Source: Candidatus Omnitrophota bacterium (GTDB lineage: Bacteria > Omnitrophota > Gorgyraeia > Gygaellales > Profunditerraquicolaceae). From it: a stretch of 64,000 nucleotides of DNA. Of the stretch, positions 2,939 to 63,910 are shown one piece after another. The notes beneath the pieces were generated by a model that had not been told where the DNA came from, searched no databases, and was given only the letters and a program-made list of their open reading frames with translations. Within the stretch, counting starts at the first letter, position 1; the number at the start of each line of letters is the position of its first letter. The stretch is from contig JAPLLZ010000029.1 in the NCBI GenBank assembly GCA_026387265.1, positions 1,064-65,063 of the forward strand. The letters are read 5' to 3'. A program made the position numbers and the translations under genes.

Positions 2939-3500
2939 GATAGGGTTTAGCCTGGTCGAGTTACTGGTAGTTACGGCTATGCTGGGGATAATCTCCCTAG
3001 CCATATTTTCAACCTTTAACAATGGTTTTAAGGTTTGGCAAAAGATAAATAAGCCTTTGGCAGAGGAGGATTTGGGCATTTTTTTTGACAAACTTGCCCA
3101 AGATTTGAGTAATTGCGTGAAGTCCAGCAGTATTCTTTTTACCGGGGATGCGAGTAGTTTCGGCGTACCGACCCTGGTGAACAGTTCAAGGCTAAAGGTA
3201 AACTCATTGGGTTTGGTGGTTTATTCATACGATCAGCAATCCGGGTTGCTATATAGAGAGCAAAAAGATTTTAGCCAGCTTTATAATCATCAGGATGCTA
3301 GCCCAGTTGTCCTGCTTAAGAATATCAGTTTTTTAAAATTTGAATATTATTATTTTGATAAGCAAGAACAGAAATATGTATGGAAAGAAGAATGGTCAGG
3401 TGCGGGTTTGCCTCTGGCAGTAAGGGTAGGTTTAAATTTAAATGATTCCTCGGAAACCGATAAGATTATCCGGACGATTAACATCCCTATCAGCGGCTAA
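2916..3500 (+). CDS. Minor pseudopilin (GspJ/PulJ-like)
   Basis: Short leader MRFIRLNR followed by IGFSLVELLVVTAMLGIISLAIF prepilin-type helix; 194 aa. Confidence 0.65.
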   Translation: MRFIRLNRIGFSLVELLVVTAMLGIISLAIFSTFNNGFKVWQKINKPLAEEDLGIFFDKLAQDLSNCVKSSSILFTGDASSFGVPTLVNSSRLKVNSLGLVVYSYDQQSGLLYREQKDFSQLYNHQDASPVVLLKNISFLKFEYYYFDKQEQKYVWKEEWSGAGLPLAVRVGLNLNDSSETDKIIRTINIPISG

Positions 3501-8112: not shown

Positions 8113-8140
8113 TATCCGCTAACGTTTCAGTGGCGGATAA
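8112..8140. repeat. CCGCC-type hairpin repeat, copy 1
   Basis: TTATCCGCTAACGTTTCAGTGGCGGATAA; its reverse complement ATCCGCCACTGAAACGTTAGCGGAT matches 26045-26071 (ATCCGCCACTGAAGCGTTGGCGGAT) at all but 2 positions. Confidence 0.6.
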
Positions 8141-10867: not shown

Positions 10868-12049
10868 ATGATGAATAAAATATTTAATTATTTTATCACG
10901 ATTTTGTTTTTAGCTTTATTTTTGCCGATAGGATTTCTGTTTGCTGATGAATCAGGCTCAAGTCCGGCTAAGCTTATCTTTTTTCATTCTCCCGGTTGTC
11001 ATCGATGTATTCAAGTAAAGCAGGAGGTAATGCCGGCTATAGAAAAAGAGTTTAAGGATAAGGTTATTTTCGAATACCGGGATATTACTGATTTGGATAA
11101 TTACAAGATGCTTCTGGGGTTATTGCAAGCTAACCCGGAGAGCCAGAAACTCCAGGTTCCGCTTTTCTATATGGGGGGTAAATTTTTAAATGGCCAAGAT
11201 CCCTTGCCTGATAGGTTGCGGAGTTTTATTTATTTTGGAATAAAAAGTAATTTAAGCTTAAAGTTAAATCCAGTAGATTTAGTGGCTTATTTTAAAAGCT
11301 TTGTTCCGGCGGCAGTTATGGTTGCTGGCCTTGGCGATGGTATAAACCCTTGTGCTTTTACGGTAATTGTTTTTTTTATTTCTTTCCTTGCTTTGCAAGG
11401 ATATCGCAAAGCAGAGCTTATTTTGATTGGTTTATTATTCATTATTGCGGTTTTTTTGACCTATCTAGGCATCGGTTTAGGTATTTTTAATTTCTTTTAC
11501 CGTTTTGCAGGGTTCTGGGTAGTTGCGTATTTATTAAATATAATTATTGGAATTTTAAGTATTATTTTTGGATTTCTTGCCGTTTATGATTTCGTAACAT
11601 TTAAAAAAACAGGTTCTACTGAAGGGTTAGTTTTGCAGCTGCCCAAACCGATTAAGGAGAATATCCACAAAGTAGTAGGATTTTTCTATCGTAAGAGCCA
11701 GCAGGAAAAACAGGAAAAAACAAAACCGGCACTAGGCAAGCTTGCCTTGAGTGCTCTAATGACCGGATTTTTAGTTTCACTTTTAGAGGCAGTTTGCACC
11801 GGCCAGGTGTATTTACCGACGATTTCCTTTGTTTTAAAATCTTCAACATTTAAGCTTCAGGCGCTAGGATATCTCTTGTTGTATAATATTATGTTTATCG
11901 TGCCGCTGATTGTCGTTTTCGTATTGGCGCTTTTGGGTACTACCAGCCAGCAATTTTCCGGTTTTTTGAAAAAACATTTAGGATTAATTAAAATTTTATT
12001 GGCAATTTTGTTTTTTAGTTTAGGTATATTTTTACTTTGGAGGGTTTAA
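10868..12049 (+). CDS. Thioredoxin-fold CxxC domain fused to a CcdA/DsbD-like thiol-disulfide transmembrane domain
   Basis: FFHSPGCHRCIQVKQE (CxxC) in the N-terminal domain; multi-TM C-terminal part with GDGINPCAF and EAVCTGQVYLP Cys-containing helices. Confidence 0.7.
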   Translation: MMNKIFNYFITILFLALFLPIGFLFADESGSSPAKLIFFHSPGCHRCIQVKQEVMPAIEKEFKDKVIFEYRDITDLDNYKMLLGLLQANPESQKLQVPLFYMGGKFLNGQDPLPDRLRSFIYFGIKSNLSLKLNPVDLVAYFKSFVPAAVMVAGLGDGINPCAFTVIVFFISFLALQGYRKAELILIGLLFIIAVFLTYLGIGLGIFNFFYRFAGFWVVAYLLNIIIGILSIIFGFLAVYDFVTFKKTGSTEGLVLQLPKPIKENIHKVVGFFYRKSQQEKQEKTKPALGKLALSALMTGFLVSLLEAVCTGQVYLPTISFVLKSSTFKLQALGYLLLYNIMFIVPLIVVFVLALLGTTSQQFSGFLKKHLGLIKILLAILFFSLGIFLLWRV

Positions 12050-25972: not shown

Positions 25973-26044
25973 TATGGCCGCAAAGTATTTTACTGTTAAA
26001 GGATTTAAGGAGTTCAATTTTGGGAGTAGCAATTAATAGCAATT

Positions 26045-26071
26045 AATCCGCCACTGAAGCGTTGGCGGATT
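26045..26071. repeat. CCGCC-type hairpin repeat, copy 2
   Basis: AATCCGCCA-CTGAAGCGT-TGGCGGATT; near-identical to the reverse complement of 8112-8140; preceded by tandem AGCAATTAAT x2. Confidence 0.6.
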
Positions 26072-26095
26072 CAATTCCGGCAAAAGAATTGTCGT

Positions 26096-26116
26096 TCCGC
26101 CATAAAACATGGCGGA
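26096..26116. repeat. 21-bp hairpin TCCGCCAT-AAAAC-ATGGCGGA (intergenic copy)
   Basis: Exact reverse complement of 36151-36171. Confidence 0.75.
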
Positions 26117-26117
26117 T

Positions 26118-26136
26118 CCGCCACGGATTGTGGCGG
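26118..26136. repeat. Third CCGCC hairpin of the radA-yacL spacer
   Basis: CCGCCAC-GGATT-GTGGCGG, directly abutting the 21-bp hairpin. Confidence 0.55.
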
Positions 26137-26156
26137 GCATTGAAGGAGGTAAGAAA

Positions 26157-34396: not shown

Positions 34397-35158
34397 ATGT
34401 TGATTGATACGCATTGTCATCTTGATTTTCCCGCCTTTGAGCCGGATCGCGATCAGGTCCTCCAGCGCGCCCAAGAAGCAGGAGTAAAATATTGTATTAA
34501 TATCGGTGCAACTTTGGAATCTTCAACTGCAGCTTGTCTACTCGCTGGTAAATATCCGGAAGTTTATGCTAGCGTAGGCGTGCATCCGCATGATGCGGAT
34601 ACTTTTGATGAACAGGCATTGCTTAAATTAAAACAATTGGCTGGCGCAAAAAAAGTGGTGGCCATCGGAGAAACCGGCCTGGATTACTATCGTAATTTAT
34701 CCAGTAAAGAAAATCAAAAACAAGCTTTTCTTAAACAGATTGTTTTAGCCAAAGAATTAAATTTGCCGGTTGTCGTGCATTGCCGCCAGGCTGAAGAAGA
34801 TACTTTAAAGATTTTAAAAAATGTTTTACCTTTGCCGATTGTCGTGCATTGTTTTTCCGGAGATGAAAATTTTTTAAAAGAGTGCTTAGACTGTGGTTTT
34901 TTCATTTCTTATACCTGTAATATTACTTACAAAAAAGCAGCTGCCTTAAGAGAGATGGTTGTTTTGACTCCCTTGGATAGGTTAATGTTGGAAACTGATG
35001 CTCCGTATTTATCTCCGGAAGGTTTCCGGGGTAAGCGTAATGAGCCAATGCAGGTAAAGCTATTGGCGAACGAAGTCAGCCGAATTAAGGGGGTAAGTTT
35101 ACAAGAGCTAGAAGAGCAGACGAGCAGAAACGCAAAAAGTTTTTTTAAATTAACATGA
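34397..35158 (+). CDS. tatD: TatD family metal-dependent hydrolase
   Basis: LIDTHCHLDF, VGVHPH, ETDAPYL metal-ligand motifs. Confidence 0.85.
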   Translation: MLIDTHCHLDFPAFEPDRDQVLQRAQEAGVKYCINIGATLESSTAACLLAGKYPEVYASVGVHPHDADTFDEQALLKLKQLAGAKKVVAIGETGLDYYRNLSSKENQKQAFLKQIVLAKELNLPVVVHCRQAEEDTLKILKNVLPLPIVVHCFSGDENFLKECLDCGFFISYTCNITYKKAAALREMVVLTPLDRLMLETDAPYLSPEGFRGKRNEPMQVKLLANEVSRIKGVSLQELEEQTSRNAKSFFKLT

Positions 35159-36294
35159 GCGCTCAAATTTCTATAGTTAAGTGTGACAATTATGAGCCAG
35201 CTAAGGTCCAGCAAGCCATTCGGGATGCGCTTGGCCTTTTAGGCGGGATAACTAACTTCATTAAGCCGAATTCCAGGGTGTTGGTTAAGCCAAATCTTTT
35301 AATGTCTAAAGGCCCGGAATGTGGTATTACTACGCATCCGCAGATAGTTAGGGCAATTATCCAAATACTGAAAGAAATAAATTGTAAAGTTGTTGTTGGT
35401 GATGGGCCGAGCGTTTGGGGCGGATATATAGAAAATGTGGATGAGGTTTATGGAGTAACTGGAATTAAAAAAGTCTGTCAGGATGAGGATGTGCGCCTGG
35501 TAAATTTTGATAAACGCCGGATGCGCGATAAATTTCCTCTTACCGCACAGCTAGATGAGTGTGATCATTTAATTAATCTGCCTAAATTTAAAACTCACGA
35601 ACTTACTTTAATTACCGGGGCAATAAAAAATCTTTTTGGATTGGTCTCTGGCACCTATAAAACCGAACTGCATAAGAATTATTTTGCCCCGGCAGAGTTT
35701 GCTAAAATCTTGGTGGATATCTATCAGGAGGCAAAACCGGATTTGACGATTATTGACGGAATATTGGCGATGGAAGGCGATGGCCCGGCGACTAGCGGAA
35801 TACCCCGGGAACTTGGCCTTTTGCTTTGTGGGGCTGATTGTGTGGCGTTAGATACAATTGTCGCCAAAATAATGGGGATTAAACAAGAGGTTTTGACGAC
35901 TAAAGAAGCTGCTTTACGTAATTTAGGGCAGGCCTGGTTGGATAAAATAAAGATAGAGGGAGAGAATATCGATCGGTTAAATATCCGTCCGTTTATTCTA
36001 CCGAAAAATTCAGTTAAACTAACTACTTTACCTCCGATTATAACAAAAATATTTAAGTCTCTGGTTAGATATTATCCTTATTCATTGCGTTTAAAATGTA
36101 CGCGTTGCGGGCATTGTGTTAAGGTTTGTCCAAAGCAGTGCATTAGATTATCCGCCATGTTTTATGGCGGAAAGAAAAGTGGAATACAGATTAACTATCA
36201 TCAATGTATTGCTTGTTTTTGCTGTCAGGAAGCTTGTCCGGAAGCAGCTATAGGGGTAAGGAAGAGCCTTTTAGCTAAATTAATAGGGTTATAG
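35155..36294 (+). CDS. DUF362 domain protein with C-terminal 2x[4Fe-4S] ferredoxin domain
   Basis: DUF362-like core; CTRCGHCVKVCP and CIACFCCQEACP cluster motifs; carries the 21-bp hairpin in frame between the two clusters. Confidence 0.75.
   Translation: MSAQISIVKCDNYEPAKVQQAIRDALGLLGGITNFIKPNSRVLVKPNLLMSKGPECGITTHPQIVRAIIQILKEINCKVVVGDGPSVWGGYIENVDEVYGVTGIKKVCQDEDVRLVNFDKRRMRDKFPLTAQLDECDHLINLPKFKTHELTLITGAIKNLFGLVSGTYKTELHKNYFAPAEFAKILVDIYQEAKPDLTIIDGILAMEGDGPATSGIPRELGLLLCGADCVALDTIVAKIMGIKQEVLTTKEAALRNLGQAWLDKIKIEGENIDRLNIRPFILPKNSVKLTTLPPIITKIFKSLVRYYPYSLRLKCTRCGHCVKVCPKQCIRLSAMFYGGKKSGIQINYHQCIACFCCQEACPEAAIGVRKSLLAKLIGL
36151..36171. repeat. 21-bp hairpin TCCGCCAT-GTTTT-ATGGCGGA inside a CDS (in frame, SAMFYGG)
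   Basis: Exact reverse complement of the intergenic 26096-26116; starts on a codon boundary of ORF 35155-36294 and is exactly 7 codons long. Confidence 0.75.
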
Positions 36295-36302
36295 AGCTAT
36301 GT

Positions 36303-36374
36303 ATTAGCGGGGTCCTGTCGAGATTTGTTTTCGCCGCATGACGCGGCTCAAATCAAATCTCGCCACCCGCTAAT
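36303..36374. repeat. GCGGG-TCCTG...CACCCGC nested-hairpin element, copy 1
   Basis: Outer stem ATTAGCGGG / CCCGCTAAT, middle stem CGAGATTTG / CAAATCTCG, central GCCGC-ATGA-(C)GCGGC. Confidence 0.6.
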
Positions 36375-36386
36375 TCCCACAATAAG

Positions 36387-48089: not shown

Positions 48090-48437
48090 CTATGCTTTTT
48101 TATTCTCAATATCCGTTTTTAAAATGGCTAATTCCTGAGTTAATTTTATTATTTTGTCTGTAAGTTCGGATATTTTTACACAAAAGTGCAGAGCAATTAA
48201 AAATAGCGATAGAAGCGTAAAAATAAAGAGTGTTGTTGTCGGCACTACCGCCCCGATAAGTTTTGTCAGCAGTAATAATAAGTCATACCAACTGATTAAA
48301 ACCAGAATAGAAATCCCGCACAAAATCCACAAAAATGAATATTCTTCGCGCAGCTTTCTGCGCCGGATTAATTCAACAATCAGCAGCAAAAGAAAAACCA
48401 CAACTAATATCGCAAATAATTTTTGCCTAAAAAGCAT
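48090..48437 (-). CDS. DUF2304-like small membrane protein
   Basis: 115 aa, hydrophobic helices, LIVELIRRRKLREEYSFLW segment; sits directly downstream of a GT2 gene, as DUF2304 proteins usually do. Confidence 0.6.
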   Translation of the reverse strand: MLFRQKLFAILVVVFLLLLIVELIRRRKLREEYSFLWILCGISILVLISWYDLLLLLTKLIGAVVPTTTLFIFTLLSLFLIALHFCVKISELTDKIIKLTQELAILKTDIENKKA

Positions 48438-48462
48438 TTTCCCCTCCTTGAAATTTTATTAG

Positions 48463-49185
48463 TTAATTTGCAGCATTTCTCTTTGTCAAAAGTTTACGTA
48501 TAAAGATAACTAATAATGAAAGCGACATTTTAAATATATAGTAAAGAGGTTTCATTCCGCTGTGCATTGATTTTTTGCTGTTTTTTAAATACATTTTTAC
48601 CGGAATCTCTTTTATTTTAAAGTTTGCGAAGTAAGAAGCGATAATTACATCGGCATCCGGAAAATCCGAAGGATACATGTTAGAATAAAATTTGCATACC
48701 CTGCGATTTAAGGCGATGAAACCAGAGGTGGGATCGGTAATCTTCTGTCGGGTAACTGAGCTGGCAATCACCCGTAAAATAGCAATACCAATCCTTCTTA
48801 AAGTAGAAACTTTGTAAGCGGATTCTCCTAAAAAACGCGAACCAATAATGATATCATTCTGATTATTCTGAATCTCAGAAAATAAGGAAGGTATGGATTT
48901 GGATTCGTGTTGTCCATCGGCGTCCAGGCATACCAGGTAATCATAGTTATGAGCTGCCGCATATTTAAAGCCAGTTTGCAAAGCCGCCCCGTAACCTAGA
49001 TTAAAGGGAAGAGAGACTACAACCGCTCCTGCTTGTTTTGCAAGAAAAGCAGTATTATCAGTTGAACCATCATCAACTACTAAAATAGGCAAATCAAAAT
49101 ATTTTTTTTTAATTTCTTTTATAACTACGCCAACATTTTCTGCTTCATTGAATGCCGGAATAATAATGCATTTTGAGATATTCAT
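48463..49185 (-). CDS. GT2 glycosyltransferase, polyprenyl-phosphate sugar synthase (Dpm1-like) type
   Basis: IIPAFNEAENV, VVDDGSTDNT, LDADGQHE (DxD); 240 aa soluble GT-A domain. Confidence 0.85.
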   Translation of the reverse strand: MNISKCIIIPAFNEAENVGVVIKEIKKKYFDLPILVVDDGSTDNTAFLAKQAGAVVVSLPFNLGYGAALQTGFKYAAAHNYDYLVCLDADGQHESKSIPSLFSEIQNNQNDIIIGSRFLGESAYKVSTLRRIGIAILRVIASSVTRQKITDPTSGFIALNRRVCKFYSNMYPSDFPDADVIIASYFANFKIKEIPVKMYLKNSKKSMHSGMKPLYYIFKMSLSLLVIFIRKLLTKRNAAN

Positions 49186-50141
49186 GCTTTTACTGTTAAG
49201 TATGCCTTGGTTTTATTAATTAATCCTATACTAATCCCGAACACTACAACGATATTTCTTAAAATGGAAATCAACGGATAAAGAATAATGGCCGGATCTT
49301 TTTTAATTTTTAAAAGTATGCAAGCAAAACCTATCTGTAAAGTTAACAGCAAGAAAAGAAATAAAATAAAAATAGTTAGCGGTCTGATGGCTAATGTTAG
49401 AATGCACATTCCGGTTAACAAAGTATTCAATAAAAACCATCTATCCAGGGGGTAAAGTTCAGCTTTGGGCAAAAATACTCTGTATCTTGCATAGGCGTAT
49501 TGTCGTTTTAAGAAACCCAACAAAGTTGATTTAAAATGGTGGATGGCGAGGGCATTTTCAACATAGATAAGTTTATACCCGCAATTTATAATCCTGGAAT
49601 TAAAATCGGCGTCTAAAGCAGCATTTAACAAATTTTCATTAAATCTACCGATTTTGTTAAAGGCCTCCTTGCGGTAAATCGCATTTGCCGAAGTAATATG
49701 TTTTGTGCAGTGCGGTTTATTTTTAAATTTAAGTTCTATTTCATAACCGGCAATCCTGGCGATCCAAGAATCATCCTGGGCAGTTACTAAATGTCCTCCT
49801 ACCCCCATAATGCTCGGACAATCAAATTCTCTGGTTACTTTAGTTAACCAGCCTTCTTCTAGCTCAACGTCGGATTCAATCAAAGCCACAAATTCTCCTT
49901 CACAATGTGCCAGAGCTGCATTAAGAGCAGCGGCCTCACCTTTATTTTTTTGCCGGAACAATTTAATATTCTTATTTTCACTGAATAATTTAGCCAGCCT
50001 TTCTGCGGGATTGTCCGTAGAACCGTCATCGATTATAATTATTTCTAATGCCTGGTTGGTTTTTTGTTTCAAAATAGATTCTACCGTATTGCTTAATGTA
50101 TTTGCGTTATTATAAACAGGAATGATAAAGCTTACTTTCAA
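49182..50141 (-). CDS. GT2 glycosyltransferase with C-terminal TM helices
   Basis: SFIIPVYNNANTL, IIIDDGSTDN, IESDVELE; hydrophobic C-terminal third. Confidence 0.8.
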   Translation of the reverse strand: MKVSFIIPVYNNANTLSNTVESILKQKTNQALEIIIIDDGSTDNPAERLAKLFSENKNIKLFRQKNKGEAAALNAALAHCEGEFVALIESDVELEEGWLTKVTREFDCPSIMGVGGHLVTAQDDSWIARIAGYEIELKFKNKPHCTKHITSANAIYRKEAFNKIGRFNENLLNAALDADFNSRIINCGYKLIYVENALAIHHFKSTLLGFLKRQYAYARYRVFLPKAELYPLDRWFLLNTLLTGMCILTLAIRPLTIFILFLFLLLTLQIGFACILLKIKKDPAIILYPLISILRNIVVVFGISIGLINKTKAYLTVKA

Positions 50142-51581
50142 TTAGCGCCTCCTAAATAATTTAAAACCGATTGTTAGATCTTTAATTAAGTCCCCGATTT
50201 TTTTATACTTTTTTATCCGGTTAAAAATTATCTGGGGCCTTAAATAGAATGATCTATACGCATAGCGCACTAAATTTTCCAGGGTTTTATTTGAAAGCTT
50301 TGTATAATTAATTATGCTTTTGGACAAAGGATCGATGCTGGTAGAATTTTCGGTTAAATAACCTTGTTCCTTGCAGATGTTATAAAAATCAGTGCCTTTA
50401 AAAGGAGTGGCGATAGAAAACATGATGTTTTTTAATTTCATATCTTTTAATTTGTCGATAGTGCTTATTATGTCTTGAGGTGATTCATCAGGGCAACAGC
50501 CTAACATTATATTCAATTTTGGTTCTATTGCGTAGTCATTTAACAATTTTATTGCAGTAATGATTGTTTCAACCTTAAGATTTTTATTAATATAATTCAG
50601 CGCTTTTTGGTTTAAGCTCTCTACTCCAATATCAATAGAGCGGCATCCGGCATCTGCCAGTGTTTTGATGATTTGTTTATTTGTTAAGAAATCCGCCCGG
50701 CTTAAACATCCCCATTCAAGTTTTAAATCCTTGATTCCCTCACAGATCTGTATTGTTCTGGATTCTTCCCATAAAAATTGGTCATCAACGATCATTACTG
50801 AGTTAAATCCCTGTTTCTTTATTTCTTGAAATTCCAGTATTACTCTTTGGGGGTTGGCTATTTTTAGTGGCGGTTTCTTGCCGAAATATTTTTTATATTC
50901 TAATTCTCTGGCAAAATTTATAGAAATAGGGACGCAAAAGATGCAATTAAAAATACATCCTCGAGAAGTCATCATCGTAGTGAAAGGTGTTCCTTTAAAC
51001 TTTGGATTAAAATATTTTTTTAAGTAAGGCAGAAATATTTGATGATTTCTGTAGGGTATGGGCAGGTTATCCAGATCCACTAAAGAGCCGGAAGGAGGTA
51101 TGTGCAGGAAAGTTTTCTTCTCAAGAAGCGAGACGCCAATTAATTTTCCTTCTGTAAAATAGTGAACAAGGTTATCCTCGACTTCACCCCTAAATACAAT
51201 CACTTTTGGCGAAATAAGATAATCTTCCGGAGCACGCGTTGGCTCCGGGCCGTAAACTATAATCTTAGTATCTTGGTTAAGCCGGGATAACTTATGGATA
51301 AAAGCCAAATCCGTGGGCTTAGAAAGAATAACAGAATGGAGCAGGCAATAATCCGGATTATAGCTCCTGATTGCCTCCCAAAATTTGCTCTCAGGTATTT
51401 TTTCCAATACGGCATCGATATAATTTAACTGGAAACCATATTTATGCAGTAAAGTGAATATATATAAGTTGGCCAGGTCAGGAAAATGGTATAGCTCATA
51501 TGAACAACCGGCTAATCTCTCCGCGGTTCTTTTTTCCAGAGGGGCGGGTTCGACAAATAGGATTTTTTTACCGTTCATCAA
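50142..51581 (-). CDS. B12-binding-domain radical SAM enzyme (class B-like), paralog 3
   Basis: Radical SAM cluster motif SRGCIFNCIFCV preceded by a roughly 190-aa Rossmann-like N-domain; 479 aa. Confidence 0.8.
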   Translation of the reverse strand: MMNGKKILFVEPAPLEKRTAERLAGCSYELYHFPDLANLYIFTLLHKYGFQLNYIDAVLEKIPESKFWEAIRSYNPDYCLLHSVILSKPTDLAFIHKLSRLNQDTKIIVYGPEPTRAPEDYLISPKVIVFRGEVEDNLVHYFTEGKLIGVSLLEKKTFLHIPPSGSLVDLDNLPIPYRNHQIFLPYLKKYFNPKFKGTPFTTMMTSRGCIFNCIFCVPISINFARELEYKKYFGKKPPLKIANPQRVILEFQEIKKQGFNSVMIVDDQFLWEESRTIQICEGIKDLKLEWGCLSRADFLTNKQIIKTLADAGCRSIDIGVESLNQKALNYINKNLKVETIITAIKLLNDYAIEPKLNIMLGCCPDESPQDIISTIDKLKDMKLKNIMFSIATPFKGTDFYNICKEQGYLTENSTSIDPLSKSIINYTKLSNKTLENLVRYAYRSFYLRPQIIFNRIKKYKKIGDLIKDLTIGFKLFRRR

Positions 51582-52948
51582 TACCTTCCTGCCAGTATTT
51601 CTTTAGCAACGGCTAATCCGGTTTTAGCGAAGTCACGGATAATAATATTTTTTTTGAATTTCTTTAAAAGCCTTAAGTGGTATCGGGGGCGGGTAAAGAA
51701 ATCAAAAGTTGCCTTGCGCCTTAACGCATAGAGCTGTTGGACTGATAAATCCGAAAGGGGGATAGGGGGAGAGTTGACTAATCCAAACCCCGACCAATTC
51801 GGCATTTTTACCCCTTTGCTGATAGCGTAATTATAAATATCAGTTCCCGGATAAGGAACGCAAATAGCAAATGAGGCATAGTCCATTTCTAATTTATTCG
51901 TGGCCAGGTTTATGGTGTCCATGGCGGTATCCCAGGTTTCACCGGGGAAACCTAGCATAAAATTCCCCCCGATATGAAAACCTACCTTGTTGGCAGCTGC
52001 AAATGACTTATATACATTTTCCAGCGTGATATTTTTTCTAACGCTATCCAGAATGCTTTGATTACCGCTTTCTACTCCAAAGCAGCACCAGTTTACTCCG
52101 GCCTGGCGTAACTTTTGATAGAGTTCCATATCCACTTCATCGCAGCGGCCCGCGATCATTATTTCTAACTTATAACCGCGTTTAATTATTTCTTCACAAA
52201 TTTCCATGGAACGTTTTTTATTCACAGTAAAGGTATCGTCCTGGATATATAAAATCCTAATTTTATACTGTTTAACCAGGATATCTAGTTCTTCCATCAC
52301 GCGGCTAATACTGAAATAACGGATACCTCGGCCCAAGACTGTTTTAGATGAGCAAAATGTGCAGTTTCTGTAGCATCCTCTGGCGGTATAAAGAACTCCT
52401 ACGGGGGCGCGCACGCCGCTGGGTAAGTCGTCAAGATTAGCAATAGGCGCCGGGGGAGGATTGTCAATTATTTTTGAACCCTTGCGAAAAGTTATGCCTG
52501 GTAATTCATCCGGGGAGTCTTTAGAGTTTAATATTTGTATTAATTTCGGCAAGGTGTATTCGCCTTCACCTCTTACTACAAAGTCAACAAAGGGGTATTG
52601 TTCTATGGTTTCCACCGGTAACGCCGTAACATGGATGCCGCCGAAAATAGTAATTATTTTAGGATCTGCTTTCTTTACGCATTCGCATAAACTTGCTGCA
52701 ATTTCCATGGTTGCCGTCATGGCCGTGACGCCGATATAGTCAGGATGATAGTCAAGTACCCGGCTTAAGCATGCTGTAAAGTTTAAAGCCAGGCCATCGG
52801 CATCTAAAAGTATGACTTTATGCCCGACACGTTCTAAGCAGGCAGCGACTGTTAAGATGCTCGTTGGCGGTATAACTGCCACAAAGTCCTGGAGTTGGTG
52901 ATAGGCGTGTTCAGAGGTTGGTGCGCAGATCAAAACTATTCTACTCAT
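51578..52948 (-). CDS. B12-binding-domain radical SAM enzyme (class B-like), paralog 2
   Basis: N-terminal cobalamin-binding-type domain (IITIFGGIHVTALP), TARGCYRNCTFCSS cluster motif; 456 aa. Confidence 0.85.
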   Translation of the reverse strand: MSRIVLICAPTSEHAYHQLQDFVAVIPPTSILTVAACLERVGHKVILLDADGLALNFTACLSRVLDYHPDYIGVTAMTATMEIAASLCECVKKADPKIITIFGGIHVTALPVETIEQYPFVDFVVRGEGEYTLPKLIQILNSKDSPDELPGITFRKGSKIIDNPPPAPIANLDDLPSGVRAPVGVLYTARGCYRNCTFCSSKTVLGRGIRYFSISRVMEELDILVKQYKIRILYIQDDTFTVNKKRSMEICEEIIKRGYKLEIMIAGRCDEVDMELYQKLRQAGVNWCCFGVESGNQSILDSVRKNITLENVYKSFAAANKVGFHIGGNFMLGFPGETWDTAMDTINLATNKLEMDYASFAICVPYPGTDIYNYAISKGVKMPNWSGFGLVNSPPIPLSDLSVQQLYALRRKATFDFFTRPRYHLRLLKKFKKNIIIRDFAKTGLAVAKEILAGRY

Positions 52949-53589
52949 TTTGGTTTATGGGCCACCATTATACAATGCAGGCTTAATGGCCAGATTAAAA
53001 AAGGGATATTGGTTATTTTTATTATTCTAAAACCAAGAGATCTAAGCTGTTTTTCCATCTCGCCAGGAGTCCACTGCCAGAGATGTCCAGTATTATAGAA
53101 AGCTTCTTTAAACATAAGCGCAGCGATCCGGGTGATTTTAAATATGAAATCATTGGGGAATACAACTATAAGTGTACCGTCTTTACGTAAAATTCTATAC
53201 ATTTCTTTAATTACTAATATCGCATCCTGAAATTTAAAGTGCTCAATCACTTCTGCCAAGATACAACAGTCGATCGTTTCCGAAGGCGTATTTAGCTGTA
53301 GTAGGTTTGCTTCGGTAACAGTTAATCCATGCTTTCGGCAAATAGCCACTTTTTCTTTGTCTATTTCTATTCCCCAGACATCTTTGTTAGGATAGGTCTT
53401 AGTTAATTTTTCTAGCGTTATTCCTTCTCCGCAGCCAGCATCTAATATTATATTTGCTTCTTTGTGGATATTGTTCAATATGGTTCTATTGCGATAATTC
53501 CAATAAATCCTGCTGAGCCTGTTTTTTGCGTATTGTTCTCGTTGAGGCAATGTTTTGCTATAACTGTAGAAATTATTGTTTGTGGGCAT
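52945..53589 (-). CDS. Class I SAM-dependent methyltransferase
   Basis: Motif I ILDAGCGEGITL, acidic loop VWGIEID, post-I/II motifs; 214 aa. Confidence 0.8.
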   Translation of the reverse strand: MPTNNNFYSYSKTLPQREQYAKNRLSRIYWNYRNRTILNNIHKEANIILDAGCGEGITLEKLTKTYPNKDVWGIEIDKEKVAICRKHGLTVTEANLLQLNTPSETIDCCILAEVIEHFKFQDAILVIKEMYRILRKDGTLIVVFPNDFIFKITRIAALMFKEAFYNTGHLWQWTPGEMEKQLRSLGFRIIKITNIPFLIWPLSLHCIMVAHKPK

Positions 53590-53601
53590 ATTTAGTTTTA
53601 A

Positions 53602-55050
53602 TTATTTTTCAAGCTGTTGAGCTAAACATTGTTTCGGTTTCAAAAATATAAATTTTAATAGAGGAATACTGATCTTCAATATTCTTCTGAAATAAAGCGG
53701 GTTTTTCATTATTCTAAGCAGGTAATCAAGAATAATTTTAGGCCTAAAATAAAATTCCTTTAGAAAGAGCTTAAAGTATTTCTCCAGGTCCTTCTTCTGT
53801 AAGCCAGAGGGTATAAAAACAGTATTTAACATGCTCATTTTTTGCCAGTCTTCAGTATGCTGGCCATATTGTTTTGCAATTCTATAAAGTTCTGATCCGG
53901 GAAACTGCGTCATAAAAGAGACGGTAATGTCGTTTAATTTAATTCGTTTAGCAAAATCAATAGTCTGGCGCAGAGTTTTTTTTGTTTCCTTAGGAAAGCC
54001 CAAGATAAAGAATCCTTTGCTAAAGATGCCTGCTTGACGAGTTAATGCGACTGCTTTTTCAATTTGTCCAAGGCCAAGTCCTTTTCTAGAGAAATCCAGG
54101 ATGTCTTGAACACCGGTTTCTATACCAAAACCTATCTGCCAACAACCGGCCCGTTTCATTAATTTTAAGATGTCCAAGCTTACCAGGTCCGCCCGGCTAT
54201 TACAAGTCCAACTTAAAAAAAGTTTCTTTTGTAATAAAAATTCACATATTTTGATTAACCGTTCTTTAGATAAAAATAGAGTATCATCTTCAAATGAGAT
54301 TTCCTTTATTCCATAGCGGTGGTGTAGAAGTTCGATCATTTCTGATATATATTGATGGCTAAAAAATCTGCAGGTTTTTTTAAAAACAGAGGAGGAGCAA
54401 AAAATACAGTTATAAGGACAGCCCCGGGAGGTTAAAATATAAGCCGCGGGCAGTTTTTGAAATTTAGATATAGCCGGATAATATCCTCTAGGGAAGTTTG
54501 GCAGGATATCCCAGGCAGGAAACGGCAGCTTATCTAAGTCAACAATTGGTGGTCGTTCCGGGGTAAGTATAACTTTATTTGTTTCCCTAAAAGTTATTCC
54601 AGGAACTTCGCCCAATTTACCTTTACTCTCTATTCTTTTAAGCAATTCAATCAATGTTTCTTCGCCTTCGCCGATTATTCCAAAGTCAAATGCGGGGAAT
54701 TTTTGCATTGTTTCTTCAGGGGTGGCGCTTAGATGTGCTCCACCGATAATTATGGTGATTCTAGCTGCCCTTTCTTTAATCATTCTCGCTAGCCTTGCAG
54801 CATTAAAAATAGATACGGTGGTAGCGGTAATCGCAACATAATCGGGATGATGGCCTAAAATTTCACTTACGCTATCTTCGTAGCTTAAGCTATTAGACGC
54901 TTCCGCGACGGCAACATCGAATTTTTCAACCCTGGCTACGCTCGCTAAATAAAGTAACCCTAAGGGCGCTAAAGTGTTACCCATTCCAGCAAAGTAACCG
55001 TATCGCTGGAATAAGCTGGTCGGTGGATTAACAAAAACTATTTTTGACAT
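53602..55050 (-). CDS. B12-binding-domain radical SAM enzyme (class B-like), paralog 1
   Basis: N-terminal cobalamin-binding-type domain (ITIIIGGAHLSATP), TSRGCPYNCIFCSS cluster motif; 482 aa. Confidence 0.85.
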   Translation of the reverse strand: MSKIVFVNPPTSLFQRYGYFAGMGNTLAPLGLLYLASVARVEKFDVAVAEASNSLSYEDSVSEILGHHPDYVAITATTVSIFNAARLARMIKERAARITIIIGGAHLSATPEETMQKFPAFDFGIIGEGEETLIELLKRIESKGKLGEVPGITFRETNKVILTPERPPIVDLDKLPFPAWDILPNFPRGYYPAISKFQKLPAAYILTSRGCPYNCIFCSSSVFKKTCRFFSHQYISEMIELLHHRYGIKEISFEDDTLFLSKERLIKICEFLLQKKLFLSWTCNSRADLVSLDILKLMKRAGCWQIGFGIETGVQDILDFSRKGLGLGQIEKAVALTRQAGIFSKGFFILGFPKETKKTLRQTIDFAKRIKLNDITVSFMTQFPGSELYRIAKQYGQHTEDWQKMSMLNTVFIPSGLQKKDLEKYFKLFLKEFYFRPKIILDYLLRIMKNPLYFRRILKISIPLLKFIFLKPKQCLAQQLEK

Positions 55051-55052
55051 AG

Positions 55053-57116
55053 CTATATTTGAGTGTTTTGAGTTTGTTTTCTATTTGTATTTTTAAGTGA
55101 TTCTAAAAAATTAGGATTAGCTGGATATCCAAGTTGGATAGCTTTATCATAATATTGGATTGCTAGGTTATAGTTTTTTATATTATAGTATGCCCAAGAG
55201 AGAAGATTATACGTTGAGCCTGAATCAGGATTAATCGTCAGTGCTTTTTGGAAAGATTTTATGGCTTGATCAAAATTACCCATATTTTCATATGTGTAGC
55301 CGAGATTAAAGTGCACAGCATGTGAATTTGGATTTATTTTTAGTGCTATTTTACACAAATCCATCGCCATTTGATACTTACCAATACCGTTGCAAAACTC
55401 CGCAGCATAAATATATACCTCAGCGACACCTGGGTTAATCGCGATTGCTTTATTATATACAATAATCGCCTCATCATTGTTTTTAATTGCTTGGTAGGTA
55501 TAAGCAAGCGCTCTGTATGATTCTATATACTTTGGGTTTAGACGCAGGGCCTGGTTAAAATCAGCTATGGCTTGAGCGTATTCTTTTTTATCACCGAAAG
55601 ACATTCCTCTGAAATAGTAAGCCTGGAAATCTAGAGGGTCTAGTTGGATTGCCTGATTTAGATAAAAAATAGCTTTATCAGGATCATTTTTTTCATAATA
55701 GACACCGCCGAGGTTATAGTAAGCTTCACTATAATTAGGCGCTAATTCAGTTGCTTTAATTAAGCTCTCTATGGCCTGGTTGTACATTTTCTTTTTGGCA
55801 TAAGCATTACCTAATTGGACATAAGTTCTTGGTTTTTTAGCGGATTTAAGAGTCAGATCTTTACTTAAAGTAATATCATCCTGCCAGGCAAAATTTCTGC
55901 TGTATGTTAAAATTGCATAGCCTGAAATAATTAAAATAAGAATTACTACCCCAAGATTTTTATTTTTAAATAAATAATACATAATAGTAACTAAAAATAT
56001 GCTGTAGCCTAGCATTGGTAAATAAAGCCGGTGTTCAAAGATTACATCTGCAAGAGGGACAACGCTTGATTCCGGCAGGAGAGTCAAGAAAAAATAGAAA
56101 ATGGCAAACGCAATTAATCTGTGCTTATGAAATATGCGGATAGCGGCAGTTAAAATAACCAACAAAAACAGAAAGCTGGCCAAGACGGGTGGCTCAAAAA
56201 ACGTATGCGTAACGGGATAATCATAGTCTAAGTTCTGATTTAAGGGTATAAATAGTAGGCGTAAATATGTAATCATAACCCTAGGCTGTGTCAGGAGGTA
56301 ATTCCAGCGAGGGATATCCGGCGCGGATTTTAACAGCTGTATCATTTTTCTGGAGTTTTCCGAGCTAGTATAAAATAATACTAACGGAACAATTAAGGAG
56401 ATGATAAAGAAAGGCAGGATCCTTTTCCAGTTTAATCCAGAAGATATTCTCAAGAAACAAAACTCATAAAGCAAAATCATGAAGGGGAGGGTGATGATTA
56501 TTTCTTTTGTAAACATCCCTACCGAAGCGGTTATCAGAGAGGCAAAGTAATAAAAATTAATCTTTTGCCCGTAATCGGGTTTTTCTATTTTCAGAATCCT
56601 GGATTTAATATAAAGGCAGAGAGTGAGTAGATAAAATAATGTGGCTAAGCCGCTGGATCTCTGGACAATATAATTTACAGCTTCAGTTTGTATGGGGTGT
56701 GCTACAAATACAGCCGCAATAAAAAAAGCAATTAGATTTGCGTGCTTAGAAATTTTGTTCTTTTTCATTGCTGGCGTAGCAAGGGTTAAAAAGGCAAACC
56801 ACCAAACCAGGATAGTTACAGATAAATGGCTAATTAGGTTAAATAGATGATAGCCGAAGACGTGCAGTTGATGTAAATGATAATTAAAGGCAAAAGAGAG
56901 GTAGGTTATGAAACGCGTAGGAGCAAAATCCCAGATCAACCCTAAATTAGACAGGTTTTTTATATTTAAATTTACAACAATGGATGACTCGTCATCGAAA
57001 TGAAATGAACCATTGAGGCTATTTGAGTAAGCAACAATCCCTAAACAACAAAGAAGAACTATGGCTAAAAGTTCATAAAGTGGATATATTTTTTTTGTGA
57101 CATTTACATTTTGCAT
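55053..57116 (-). CDS. Polytopic GT-C-like membrane protein with C-terminal TPR array (TMTC-like architecture)
   Basis: About 400-aa multi-TM N-domain with first-loop acidic motif GSFHFDDESSIV, followed by about 7 TPR repeats (YAKKKMYNQAIESLIKATELAPNY...); 687 aa. Confidence 0.7.
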   Translation of the reverse strand: MQNVNVTKKIYPLYELLAIVLLCCLGIVAYSNSLNGSFHFDDESSIVVNLNIKNLSNLGLIWDFAPTRFITYLSFAFNYHLHQLHVFGYHLFNLISHLSVTILVWWFAFLTLATPAMKKNKISKHANLIAFFIAAVFVAHPIQTEAVNYIVQRSSGLATLFYLLTLCLYIKSRILKIEKPDYGQKINFYYFASLITASVGMFTKEIIITLPFMILLYEFCFLRISSGLNWKRILPFFIISLIVPLVLFYTSSENSRKMIQLLKSAPDIPRWNYLLTQPRVMITYLRLLFIPLNQNLDYDYPVTHTFFEPPVLASFLFLLVILTAAIRIFHKHRLIAFAIFYFFLTLLPESSVVPLADVIFEHRLYLPMLGYSIFLVTIMYYLFKNKNLGVVILILIISGYAILTYSRNFAWQDDITLSKDLTLKSAKKPRTYVQLGNAYAKKKMYNQAIESLIKATELAPNYSEAYYNLGGVYYEKNDPDKAIFYLNQAIQLDPLDFQAYYFRGMSFGDKKEYAQAIADFNQALRLNPKYIESYRALAYTYQAIKNNDEAIIVYNKAIAINPGVAEVYIYAAEFCNGIGKYQMAMDLCKIALKINPNSHAVHFNLGYTYENMGNFDQAIKSFQKALTINPDSGSTYNLLSWAYYNIKNYNLAIQYYDKAIQLGYPANPNFLESLKNTNRKQTQNTQI

Positions 57117-57492: not shown

Positions 57493-57573
57493 TGCGGGAG
57501 GAGGGAGTTGAACCCTCAAGGGTTACCCCACACGCTTCTGAGACGTGCGCGTATGCCATTCCGCCACTCCCGC
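57493..57573 (-). tRNA. tRNA-Leu (anticodon CAG)
   Basis: Hand-folded: acceptor GCGGGAG/CTCCCGC, D arm GCG-GAATGGCATA-CGC, anticodon arm CACGT-CTCAGAA-GCGTG, 13-nt variable arm, T arm GAGGG-TTCAACT-CCCTC, discriminator A; CCA not encoded. Confidence 0.9.
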
Positions 57574-59289: not shown

Positions 59290-59710
59290 GGGGGTGAAAG
59301 GGTTCGACTTAAGATATGTCGCTTAAGAGCAGCATGCCGCGGATGTAAGGTTAGCCGCGTTAACAATCCTTGCACAATTCAAACGCAAACACAAAAACAC
59401 CAGTGTTCACAAACCGATTGGCAGCGTTACCGGGTTTTCAGCCGGTAGCATTTCCAGCTGGTTGCGTACCAGTCTTAGCGTTTAATTAAACGCTAAGCCT
59501 CTAGCTGTCCTGCCTACGGGATAGATTAGAGCTCAAGTAGGATAGTCCCGGCGGTTAGCCTTCCAAACCGGGGCAAAATCGAAAAGGCTGCATCTTGCAA
59601 ATCCTGCCGGGTAGGAGTTGCAAGGTTAAGAATAAATTACCAGGCTAAGCATGTAGCGGTTTTTAGGTGATTACTTAAGGACGGCGGTCCGATTCCGCCC
59701 ACCTCCACCA
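59290..59710 (+). ncRNA. ssrA: tmRNA (SsrA)
   Basis: 5' GGGGGTGAAAGGGTTCGAC; 3' tRNA-like end GGACGGCGGTCCGATTCCGCCCACCTCCACCA. The acceptor pairs GGGGGTG/CACCTCC with the G3-U pair. Tag ORF 59385-59489 has its stop in the loop of the CTTAGCGTTT/AAACGCTAAG hairpin. Confidence 0.9.
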
Positions 59711-59733: not shown

Positions 59734-59765
59734 GACCTCGCCAAAATATTAGATTTTGGCGGGTC
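59734..59765. repeat. CGCCAAAAT hairpin downstream of the tmRNA
   Basis: GACC-T-CGCCAAAAT-ATTAG-ATTTTGGCG-G-GTC; stem sequence resembles the GCCAAATTTGGC core of 45440-45513. Confidence 0.45.
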
Positions 59766-62808: not shown

Positions 62809-63479
62809 TTAAAGCCAGGATTTCCGAAGTATTCGATAGCGTACAAGGTGAAGGCCTGTATTTGGGAGAGAAGCAGATTTTTGTGCGTTTTTTTGACTGT
62901 AATCTCAGCTGCATTTATTGTGATACTAAGCTGGACCGGTTTACGGAGTATGAACCAAAAGAGCTTTTTGAAGAAATTAGCCTTTATCGCGATAAGTATC
63001 ATTCTATTTCTTTTACCGGGGGTGAGCCGCTTCTTTATGCGGATTTCTTGAAGGAGATCTTTAAGCTTACTAGTGGGCGTGGCCACCGGCATTATCTGGA
63101 AACAAATGGAACCCTGTTTTTTGAGCTAGAGAAATTAATCGACCATATTGATATTATTGCGATGGACTTGAAATTCCCCAGCTCATCCGGGATGGGTAAT
63201 CTTTGGCAATTACATCGTAAATTTTTAAAAATTGCCTCCAAAAAAGAAGTGTTTCTTAAAGCAATTATCTGTCAGGCGACTTATGAGGAAGATTTAAAAG
63301 AGGCTTTGGCGATAATTAAAGAAATAAGCCCGGCCAGCGTTTTAGTTCTGCAGCCGAATAGCTATGAGAATCAGGCGGTTTTACATGAAAAAATGATGAA
63401 TTTCAAAGAGATTGCTACACAACAGGGGGTTACCACTTGCGTTATCCCCCAGATTCATAAAATAATGGGGTTAAAATGA
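62805..63479 (+). CDS. queE: 7-carboxy-7-deazaguanine synthase (radical SAM)
   Basis: FDSVQGEG, CNLSCIYCDT cluster motif, FTGGEPLL. Confidence 0.85.
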   Translation: MIKARISEVFDSVQGEGLYLGEKQIFVRFFDCNLSCIYCDTKLDRFTEYEPKELFEEISLYRDKYHSISFTGGEPLLYADFLKEIFKLTSGRGHRHYLETNGTLFFELEKLIDHIDIIAMDLKFPSSSGMGNLWQLHRKFLKIASKKEVFLKAIICQATYEEDLKEALAIIKEISPASVLVLQPNSYENQAVLHEKMMNFKEIATQQGVTTCVIPQIHKIMGLK

Positions 63480-63910
63480 AGAATAAACTAATAAAAATGT
63501 CCGCCACAGTGCATGGTGGAAAGAAATCTGATTATGAAGGTTTACAAAATAATGTCAGGAAATTAAAGACACCGGCAATTGAGGTTTGGCAAAATCAATA
63601 TGCGGATAAGGTTTATGTTATTAACTTGGATATTCCGGAGTTTACTTGTATCTGTCCTAAAACCGGTTTACCGGATTTTGCGGTTATCCGAATTGAATAT
63701 TCTCCGCTTAAGTTTTGTGTGGAGCTAAAATCTTTTAAACTTTACACCATATCTTTTCGCAATGTGGGGATTTTTCATGAGCATCTGATTAATAAAATGC
63801 TGGAGGATTTTGTGCGCGCAGTGAAGCCGCGCTGGGTAAAGATTAGTGGTGTTTTTAATCCCCGCGGCGGAATTACTACTACTGTTTCAGCGGAGTATAA
63901 AACTAGATGA
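63476..63910 (+). CDS. queF: NADPH-dependent 7-cyano-7-deazaguanine reductase (unimodular type)
   Basis: Catalytic Cys motif CICPKTGLPDF and ELKSFKLY QueF motif. Confidence 0.9.
   Translation: MKNKLIKMSATVHGGKKSDYEGLQNNVRKLKTPAIEVWQNQYADKVYVINLDIPEFTCICPKTGLPDFAVIRIEYSPLKFCVELKSFKLYTISFRNVGIFHEHLINKMLEDFVRAVKPRWVKISGVFNPRGGITTTVSAEYKTR

Follow-up and report, generated by a model that had tools for sequence, protein, structure and literature searches.

The stretch analysed here, a window of 64,000 nucleotides from contig JAPLLZ010000029.1 of Candidatus Omnitrophota, contains an intact gene for a protein composed of a DUF362 domain (PF04015, E = 3.7e-51) and a C-terminal ferredoxin domain of the 4Fe-4S dicluster type (Fer4_7, PF12838, E = 1e-7). 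All eight cluster cysteines are present in the protein and both CxxCxxCxxxC(P) motifs are intact. Between the two motifs lies an in-frame palindromic unit of 21 nt, TCCGCCATGTTTTATGGCGGA, which is the subject of this report. The unit starts on a codon boundary of the open reading frame and reads S-A-M-F-Y-G-G; the host peptide that spans it is ...CIRLSAMFYGGKK.... An identical protein, with the insert present as deposited, is available at NCBI (MCX5694112.1) from a Candidatus Omnitrophota metagenome-assembled genome (MAG). The original prediction, made from the DNA letters alone, took the unit for a mobile mini-hairpin that had entered the gene without breaking its frame. This proposal is supported by an empty site in the closest relative, by the lack of the insert in most homologs, by the existence of a dispersed family of such 21-nt palindromic units, and by the fact that the copies share the unit only. 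Moreover, one codon boundary of the DUF362-ferredoxin gene has gained such units independently in at least eight lineages.

The exact reverse complement of the coding unit is located in the spacer between radA and yacL, and the flanking genes are indeed of RadA/Sms type and of PIN-domain (yacL-like) type, as had been suggested. Both positions and the match itself were recomputed and are correct, as are the 8-bp stem, the 5-nt loop, the start at a codon boundary and the length of exactly seven codons. These two are the only matches to the 21-mer in the window with three or fewer mismatches. None was obtained in 100 dinucleotide-preserving shuffles, which agrees with the earlier opinion that a chance match is very unlikely. 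The identity reaches 23 of 23 positions when a flanking A on each side is included; apart from this, the flanks differ. The 21-mer folds with eight Watson-Crick pairs and a 5-nt loop. As RNA, with G.U pairs permitted, it forms nine pairs and a 3-nt loop (-12.6 kcal/mol, z = -3.8).

The two copies belong to a family with the consensus TCCGCC-N9-GGCGGA, the units of which occur singly or as abutting doublets. Intact units have 21 nt, a stem of 7-9 bp, a loop of 3-7 nt and a folding energy of -8.6 to -14 kcal/mol. A covariance model built from 24 distinct units finds exactly five members in the window (Table 1), three of them in the radA-yacL spacer, one in the ferredoxin gene and one in queF; two of the three occupied sites are intragenic. 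The additional spacer hairpins, the queF copy and the recurrent use of the DUF362 site were not part of the original prediction. Spacer units A and B together fold as two hairpins (-26.7 kcal/mol, z = -6.2), and a homologous pair of units occupies the equivalent position of the radA-yacL spacer in another locus (L022). Beyond the hairpins of this spacer and the copy in the ferredoxin gene, a scan for perfect GC-rich 8-bp hairpins found none in the 64 kb.

Table 1. Palindromic units of the window and the genes and spacer that contain them
Feature	Position	Strand	Remarks
Coding unit TCCGCC-ATGTTTTAT-GGCGGA	36151..36171	+	In frame (S-A-M-F-Y-G-G) between the Cys motifs of the DUF362-ferredoxin gene; model 30.3 bits, E ~9e-5; site empty in L001
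Spacer unit A, TCCGCC-ATAAAACAT-GGCGGA	26096..26116	+	Exact reverse complement of the coding copy
Spacer unit B, TCCGCC-ACGGATTGT-GGCGGG	26117..26137	+	Abuts unit A (21-nt period, 0 spacer nt); ends 6 nt before the yacL GGAGG
Longer-loop relative ATCCGCCA-CTGAAGCGT-TGGCGGAT	26047..26069	+	radA-yacL spacer; model 18.8 bits, E ~0.05
queF unit TCCGCC-ACAGTGCAT-GGTGGA	63500..63520	+	One G.T wobble; in frame (S-A-T-V-H-G-G), queF codons 9-15; model 24.4 bits, E ~0.002
radA-yacL intergenic spacer	25973..26156	+	Three hairpins; none in the syntenic spacer of the closest relative
DUF362 gene with C-terminal 2x[4Fe-4S] ferredoxin domain	35155..36294	+	379 aa, intact; assigned by Pfam
queF (preQ1 synthase)	63476..63910	+	144 aa; 100% match named preQ(1) synthase, PF14489; start overlaps queE stop (ATGA)

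The closest sequenced relative, GCA_028712375.1, shares 92% protein and 85.7% DNA identity with the host gene, and its gene order is the same over 21 kb. At the position of the insert it has an empty site, AGG TTA|AAG AAA AGT, where the window has AGA TTA[21 nt]AAG AAA AGT. The difference is a clean 21 nt, and no more than 1 nt could be duplicated. The DUF362-ferredoxin gene received its copy after the split from this relative. Among the 120 best homologs, which are 71-90% identical, almost all 372-373 aa long and Omnitrophota where named, 112 likewise lack the seven residues; the gain is lineage-specific. A local stem, TGTATT...AATACA, around the empty site of the relative (L001) was treated as coincidence, as a comparison with L002 by eye found it not conserved in other orthologs.

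The segment that received the unit varies in length by nature. From the first CP to the next Cys there are 24 residues with the unit and 17 without it, as originally counted. The shorter spacing had been called the more typical one, and it is found in 70 of 80 orthologous loci from 80 species-representative genomes; the norm of about 15 given originally is not borne out, the mode being 17 (range 14-30) in 150 distant representatives with 35-65% identity as well. When the protein is aligned to solved polyferredoxins (MvhB, FwdF), gaps and longer insertions fall precisely in this linker. The insert therefore lies in a naturally length-variable part of the protein.

Inserts at exactly the same boundary are present in eight of 121 proteins and consist of one or two units. 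Single units read SAMFYGG (the window), STANCGG, SATNHGG, SATDRGG and FTINRGG, double units SAANRGG-PAMKYGG, SAANRGG-SAVLHGG and SAADRGG-SARLYGG. A further carrier, L025 (SAINRGG-SAKFFGG), was found among the genome representatives. DNA was compared for six carriers, P0002 and P0015 being known at the protein level. In all six, one or two TCCGCC-N9-GGCGGA units with differing 9-nt cores stand between a Leu codon and AAA/AAG. The 7- and 14-residue segments of distant orthologs, for which an origin in non-palindromic DNA had been considered, are thus encoded by palindromes of the family and have arisen independently.

The history of the site was followed on a neighbor-joining (NJ) protein tree, built without the insert columns, by Fitch parsimony with 100 bootstraps. 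Every carrier is a singleton on this tree and its nearest relatives lack the insert. Eight changes are obtained in 99 of the 100 bootstraps, and a single ancestral gain would require 29 precise losses. At least eight lineages have thus each acquired one or two units of their own at the same codon boundary (Leu codon ^ AAR AAR), independently of one another. Spread of one inserted allele by recombination was considered too; the residues flanking the insert of each carrier match those of its unit-less sisters, so that recombination between alleles is not indicated.

Some sites have traces of units. L003 has a decayed unit, TTTACC...GGCGGA, at the DUF362 site, and L037 (~10997-11011) has CTT TCC GCC CGC ATT there, with SAR replacing KKSG, a possible deletion footprint. 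Another possible footprint is TCCGGA in the hairpin-free radA-yacL spacer of the sister genome (L018/L001, ~1000-1010).

Other small inserts and palindromes surround the same gene. A second hot spot of the linker is situated 4-5 residues downstream, after KKSGI, where unrelated inserts of 3-34 residues (for example IPPMLVASGDF...) are found in the DUF362 orthologs P0005, P0017, P0108, P0082 (= L030 10982-11065) and P0046. In L030 a small hairpin of another sequence (GTTTC...GAAAC) makes up this insert. Hairpin insertions of several kinds seem to accumulate in the inter-cluster linker. The spacer between the DUF362 gene and mtnA (36295-36386 in the window, 11120-11246 in L001) contains in both genomes a nested stem-loop bounded by GGGTCCTGTC...GCCACCCG, with wholly different inner hairpins. 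The L001 spacer also has a 16-nt mini-palindrome, TCCGCCAGGTGGCGGA, followed by AAAAAC, which resembles a family unit without its core. The palindrome CCTGCCTGCCGGCAGGCAGG occurs twice in L022 (= L002), at 3040-3065 and 11198-11220, one copy directly after the DUF362 stop codon. In some orthologs the unit is followed by A AAA AAG; a frameshift signal was rejected, as the hairpin lies upstream of the slippery site and not downstream.

The start of queF (ATG ^ AAR AAA) is a second site of this kind. It is occupied in the window as well, and its unit is followed by AAG AAA, as in the ferredoxin gene. The basic N-terminus of the protein is MKKSD-YEGLQ (130 aa), with the empty form ATG AAA AAA TCT GAT in L099. 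Orthologs of 130, 137, 144 and 151 aa exist, with 0 to 2 units in patchy distribution: one or two S-A-x-x-x-G-G units stand directly before KKSD in 15 of 120 orthologs, and the closest relatives by core sequence are mostly unit-less, queF being too short for a reliable tree. The sister genome (L098) carries a unit too, TCC GCT AAA ATA CGT AGT GGA. It differs from that of the window at 7 of 21 positions and keeps a 7-bp stem via a C-G to T-A double change. As this unit is orthologous, the queF copy predates the split of the two genomes and its structure has been retained. Gene callers place the queF start differently among orthologs. Seven queF orthologs (P0173, P0182, P0189, P0196, P0209 = L101 4656-4720, P0215 and P0232) have a different N-terminal extension with a period of seven residues (21 nt), (R/K)KTEDG(R/K) repeated 2-3 times. 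It derives from purine-rich direct repeats (AGG ACA GAA GAC AGA GGA CAG AAG ACA GAG GAC AGA) and forms no hairpins.

The third coding context is tpiA. In two metagenome contigs, L009 and L013, a doublet, translated in the frame that the units also have in the other two genes, constitutes the C-terminal tail of the protein, just before the ribosome-binding site of secG. The tail is missing in all 119 other orthologs.

The stems of the units are conserved in nucleotide sequence. Among the DUF362 carriers, third-position identity in the four stem codons (Ser, Ala, Gly, Gly) is 95%; the corresponding value for conserved four-fold-type residues elsewhere in the host gene is 38-63%. In the 24 distinct units 94% of stem cells are paired and five of the eight pairs vary on both sides, with U-A/C-G at 1/21 and C-G/U-A at 2/20 and 6/16 among the covarying pairs. 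The covariation score was reached by none of 500 shuffles; positions 3-6 and 16-19 are partly fixed by the search pattern, and positions 1, 2, 7 and 8 with their partners are free. The stems are thus preserved through compensatory changes also. On the sense strand, the seven outer pairs include nine G.U wobbles and three non-pairs, and this excess of wobbles gives mild support to the structure being important in RNA or in one DNA strand. A role as DNA-uptake sequence was rejected: CCGCCA occurs only 12 times in the 64 kb, four of these in the hairpins.

Outside the window, the exact 21-mer was found on 11 JGI metagenome contigs in at least eight unrelated gene neighbourhoods. These include tpiA-secG, glyS-ppdK, an ABC-2 permease beside a GAF/ANTAR regulator, a glyoxalase beside a di-haem oxidoreductase, and positions downstream of an NAD(P)H-hydrate dehydratase gene and upstream of an SNase-like gene. 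The GC content of the contigs is 0.40 to 0.53, and two of them (L016 and L009) were traced to Omnitrophota. The exact 21-mer often abuts a second unit there, and doublets are common in general (the window spacer, L022, L025, L006, L097, L009 and L100), always with 0 nt between the units. Each unit of a doublet is palindromic by itself, the cores are only roughly inverted, and folding favours two separate hairpins. The core of the window pair, ATAAAACAT/ATGTTTTAT, was not found in any of 22 other independent units. Being private to this pair among the units compared, it points to a recent copying event or to a shared, recently active master copy. At L023 5208-5265, a longer palindrome (GAGAATTTTGCGC...GCGCAAAATTCTC) has a family unit, CCCGCC-ACGATTCTT-GGCGGG, within its loop.

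Several other identities of the repeat were discarded. A search of viral contigs for the exact 21-mer gave no match, and 13 viral matches to the doublet pattern are ascribed to chance, as all lie in contigs of 56-68% GC and lack a completed second hairpin. A CRISPR-like array was rejected since the units abut without spacers. The units are not intrinsic terminators either: no T run follows them, their 3' neighbours being AAGAAA, TCCGCC or CATTGAAGGAGG.

We propose that the units are a family of mini-palindromes dispersed in Candidatus Omnitrophota, similar to repetitive extragenic palindromic sequences (REPs), and that they were inserted or copied in frame into the ferredoxin gene and tolerated in its variable linker; we consider this likely. 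Judged by their distribution, the units appear to be mobile. They could be copied in trans in the form of single-stranded hairpins, through template switching or through an enzyme that recognises hairpins and has its gene in another part of the genome (of the REP-associated tyrosine transposase (RAYT) or IS200-like type). Junctions immediately 5' of an A-rich tract would be favoured for integration; the 3' flanks in the three coding contexts are AAGAAA, AAGAAA and AAATAA. A-rich tracts within genes are usually Lys-Lys codons, so this preference would explain the constant reading frame. The frame of the host is kept because the unit comprises seven codons, TCC GCC ... GGC GGA, reads Ser-Ala-x-x-x-Gly-Gly and contains no stop codon. 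Selection would then retain only copies in tolerant linkers, loops or termini. Coding copies are most likely tolerated passengers. Intergenic copies, which inside operons lie a few bases at most from the ribosome-binding sites of yacL, secG and ispF, probably function as hairpins in the mRNA, a role that has been proposed for REPs (PMC3733652).

Several results weigh against this proposal. There is no transposase among the genes of the window, Pfam searches with the genes outside the syntenic block yielding housekeeping functions only, and a tblastn search with an approximate IS200 TnpA query, a weak test, gave nothing below E = 1 in 1.5 Mb of loci. We observed neither a target-site duplication beyond a possible 1 nt nor a terminal tag. 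Among the flanks of 23 arrays, those of intergenic copies have no common target motif, and the three coding contexts are all A-rich on the 3' side, so the target preference rests mainly on these three. Given these negative results, the mechanism is what we infer from the pattern of sites. Units are also rare, with about six occupied sites in 1.19 Mb from 80 other species, two of them at the DUF362 codon boundary. The family is therefore active or retained in some lineages only, and its sites are anything but randomly placed. Genomes of 40-53% GC have precisely the same loop, and so do L009 and L013 in spite of their diverged flanks, which could instead mean functional selection. The AlphaFold2 model, computed on 41 orthologs, is of moderate confidence in the DUF362 part, and residues 299-379 have a predicted local distance difference test (pLDDT) score below 50; a surface loop is not directly supported, and the argument for tolerance at this position is the variation in linker length. 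Finally, the tree is an NJ tree of one gene's protein.

A stronger version of the proposal regards the 21-nt hairpin as a target-directed mobile element that enters, possibly in single-stranded DNA, at the junction 5' of AAR-AAR. This is possible, though we are inclined to doubt it. If true, it would explain the repeated independent entry at the same codon boundary in the DUF362-ferredoxin gene and in queF, always in the Ser-Ala-x-x-x-Gly-Gly frame. The units would then be among the smallest site-preferring mobile DNAs known, and one site with many entries would provide natural replicates for studying both hairpin movement and protein tolerance.

The identity of the two window copies, loop included, and their inverted orientation would also be expected if one of them had served locally as template for the other, in either direction, by replication template switching or short-patch gene conversion and without a dedicated enzyme; the spacer unit lies 10 kb upstream and belongs to the same replichore. 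The lack of a transposase in the 64 kb and of target-site duplications fits such copying, as does the nesting of hairpins in other palindromes (L023 and the DUF362-mtnA spacer), which hairpin-driven replication errors should produce. Template switching into an empty site, however, requires homology at the junction, and the flanks share at most 1 nt. The exact 21-mer moreover exists in at least eight other unrelated contexts of other genomes, and repeated occupation of one boundary with different donor cores is hard to obtain by chance slippage, so we judge this explanation rather unlikely. It is less probable still that the DUF362 site (and that of queF) was occupied by one old insertion early in the clade, which was kept where the hairpin is useful and precisely deleted in most lineages, including the sister genome. 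An old insertion would account for the same nucleotide position in distant lineages, for stems conserved at synonymous positions and for the remnants in L003 and L037; the queF unit of L098, with its compensatory change, does predate the split of the window and L001. The first-unit cores of several carriers are alike (RCARATCRY), but this likeness is the family consensus, seen in unrelated contexts too. Such a history would need about 29 independent, in-frame, precise deletions as opposed to eight gains. Nor does it agree with the window core, absent from the 22 other independent units, or with the 21/21 identity of the coding and spacer copies, though synonymous sites have diverged by 37% since the sister split.

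Functional selection deserves separate consideration. Hairpin and loop could be a cis-element, that is, a protein recognition site or an mRNA structure (a stability barrier or translation pause), selected adaptively even inside genes. The loop conservation described above, the stereotyped placement of intergenic copies just upstream of ribosome-binding sites, the prevalence of G.U wobbles over non-pairs and the covariation are all compatible with a maintained structure. The ferredoxin linker, the QueF N-terminus and the TpiA C-terminus nevertheless share no function, most orthologs manage without the unit, no Rfam family matches it, and the loops vary freely among carriers at one site. We therefore assign this explanation a low probability. 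Chance or an assembly artefact can practically be dismissed. The source is a MAG and palindromes can cause mis-assembly, but no match appeared in the shuffles, same-site inserts of the family occur in independent assemblies (NCBI, JGI, ENA, Logan), the frame is intact, and the deposited protein contains the insert.

The dispersed family proposed here is best compared with REPs and the structures they form, bacterial interspersed mosaic elements (BIMEs) and REP doublets forming hairpins (REPINs), in which two inverted REPs with a short spacer between them can fold together. Like the Omnitrophota unit, these are short (20-40 bp) imperfect palindromes with conserved stem and variable loop, present as singles or close doublets. 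REPs are dispersed in many copies per genome and reside mostly in short spacers between co-directional genes, G.T pairs suggest their transcription, and some are intragenic and encode extra residues. Intragenic REPs, both single units and dimers, are most numerous in Opitutus terrae, a bacterium of the Planctomycetes-Verrucomicrobia-Chlamydiae (PVC) group, and in Rickettsia conorii; in two Xanthomonas species, the recB genes contain REPs 'at about the same site' (Di Nocera et al. 2013, PMC3733652). The same authors distinguish two REP super-families with an unpaired GTAG or CGTC tag at one end. Neither tag is present at either end of the Omnitrophota unit in the flanks of 23 arrays, so we do not place it in these super-families. 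It further differs from REPs and REPINs by its fixed length of 21 nt and by doublets that abut without spacer, and from REPs in that many lineages have, time and again and independently, acquired it at a single codon boundary and in the same frame throughout. The unit is REP-like in look and probably in working, and is not a demonstrated member of the tagged super-families. Precedents for hairpin copying are given by IS200/IS605 and by REPs and RAYTs in the REPIN-RAYT model (Bertels & Rainey 2011, PMC3116915).

Other in-frame palindromic repeats are known. Rickettsia palindromic elements (RPEs) and in-frame MITEs (miniature transposable elements with inverted repeats) reside in housekeeping genes, at surface-compatible positions of proteins presumed functional (PMC10969869; for Coxiella QMITEs, PMC5896051). 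RPEs are, however, about 100-150 bp long with a conserved peptide module, whereas the Omnitrophota unit has 21 nt and only its stem-encoded SA..GG residues are conserved. MITEs (~70-300 bp) possess terminal inverted repeats and target-site duplications, an architecture that the unit lacks. Nearest in size are the small dispersed repeats (SDRs) of the cyanobacterium Nostoc punctiforme. SDR4-6, reportedly described by Elhai and co-workers in 2008, are said to be hairpins of 21-27 nt with compensatory changes and nested insertions; they were reportedly proposed to be the smallest mobile elements and to move through an RNA intermediate. The size class, the hairpin and the compensatory changes are alike, but the Omnitrophota unit is unrelated in sequence and phylum; the likeness is one of kind, not of membership. 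PMC4390886 cites SDR5 as having a defined short target, HIP1, which it enters precisely, with nucleotide 3 on one side and nucleotide 4 on the other. The Omnitrophota unit has no HIP1-like target, its apparent preference being the junction 5' of AAR AAR. Against this background it is the replicated insertion of a 21-nt element at one site, in two genes, in an uncultivated phylum, that is unusual.

How REP-like mini-palindromes spread is an unresolved question, and most evidence comes from Proteobacteria. The DUF362 site, with its empty sites, decayed copies and single- and double-unit states, represents a series of natural replicates, and queF behaves likewise. Target choice, rates of gain and loss, and the cost to a protein of 7 or 14 residues inserted beside Fe-S clusters thereby become accessible to comparative genomics and to simple biochemical tests. 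A practical lesson concerns annotation, in which the units give rise to extensions in frame and to false start codons. Read mechanically, the yacL open reading frame begins within unit A, at the ATG at 26109; the real start, 26157, is in the same frame and has the GGAGG site upstream. Units can therefore create false N-terminal extensions.

Two looser relatives of the family are located between convergent genes (8115-8137) and after the tmRNA gene (59737-59763). Rfam searches, of the whole window at gathering scores and of the spacer at permissive E-values, found only tmRNA and one tRNA and no match to the hairpins. The looser relative after the tmRNA gene (59290-59710, 165 bits) is an 11-bp hairpin, CTCGCCAAAAT-ATTAG-ATTTTGGCGGG, which has a family-like stem, precedes a T-rich stretch and is probably the ssrA terminator. 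The tRNA is encoded on the minus strand (57493-57573). A block of minus-strand genes at 48090-57116, in which GC skew falls towards zero, codes for three paralogous B12-binding radical SAM proteins, a methyltransferase, two family-2 glycosyltransferases, a DUF2304 protein and a large TPR protein.

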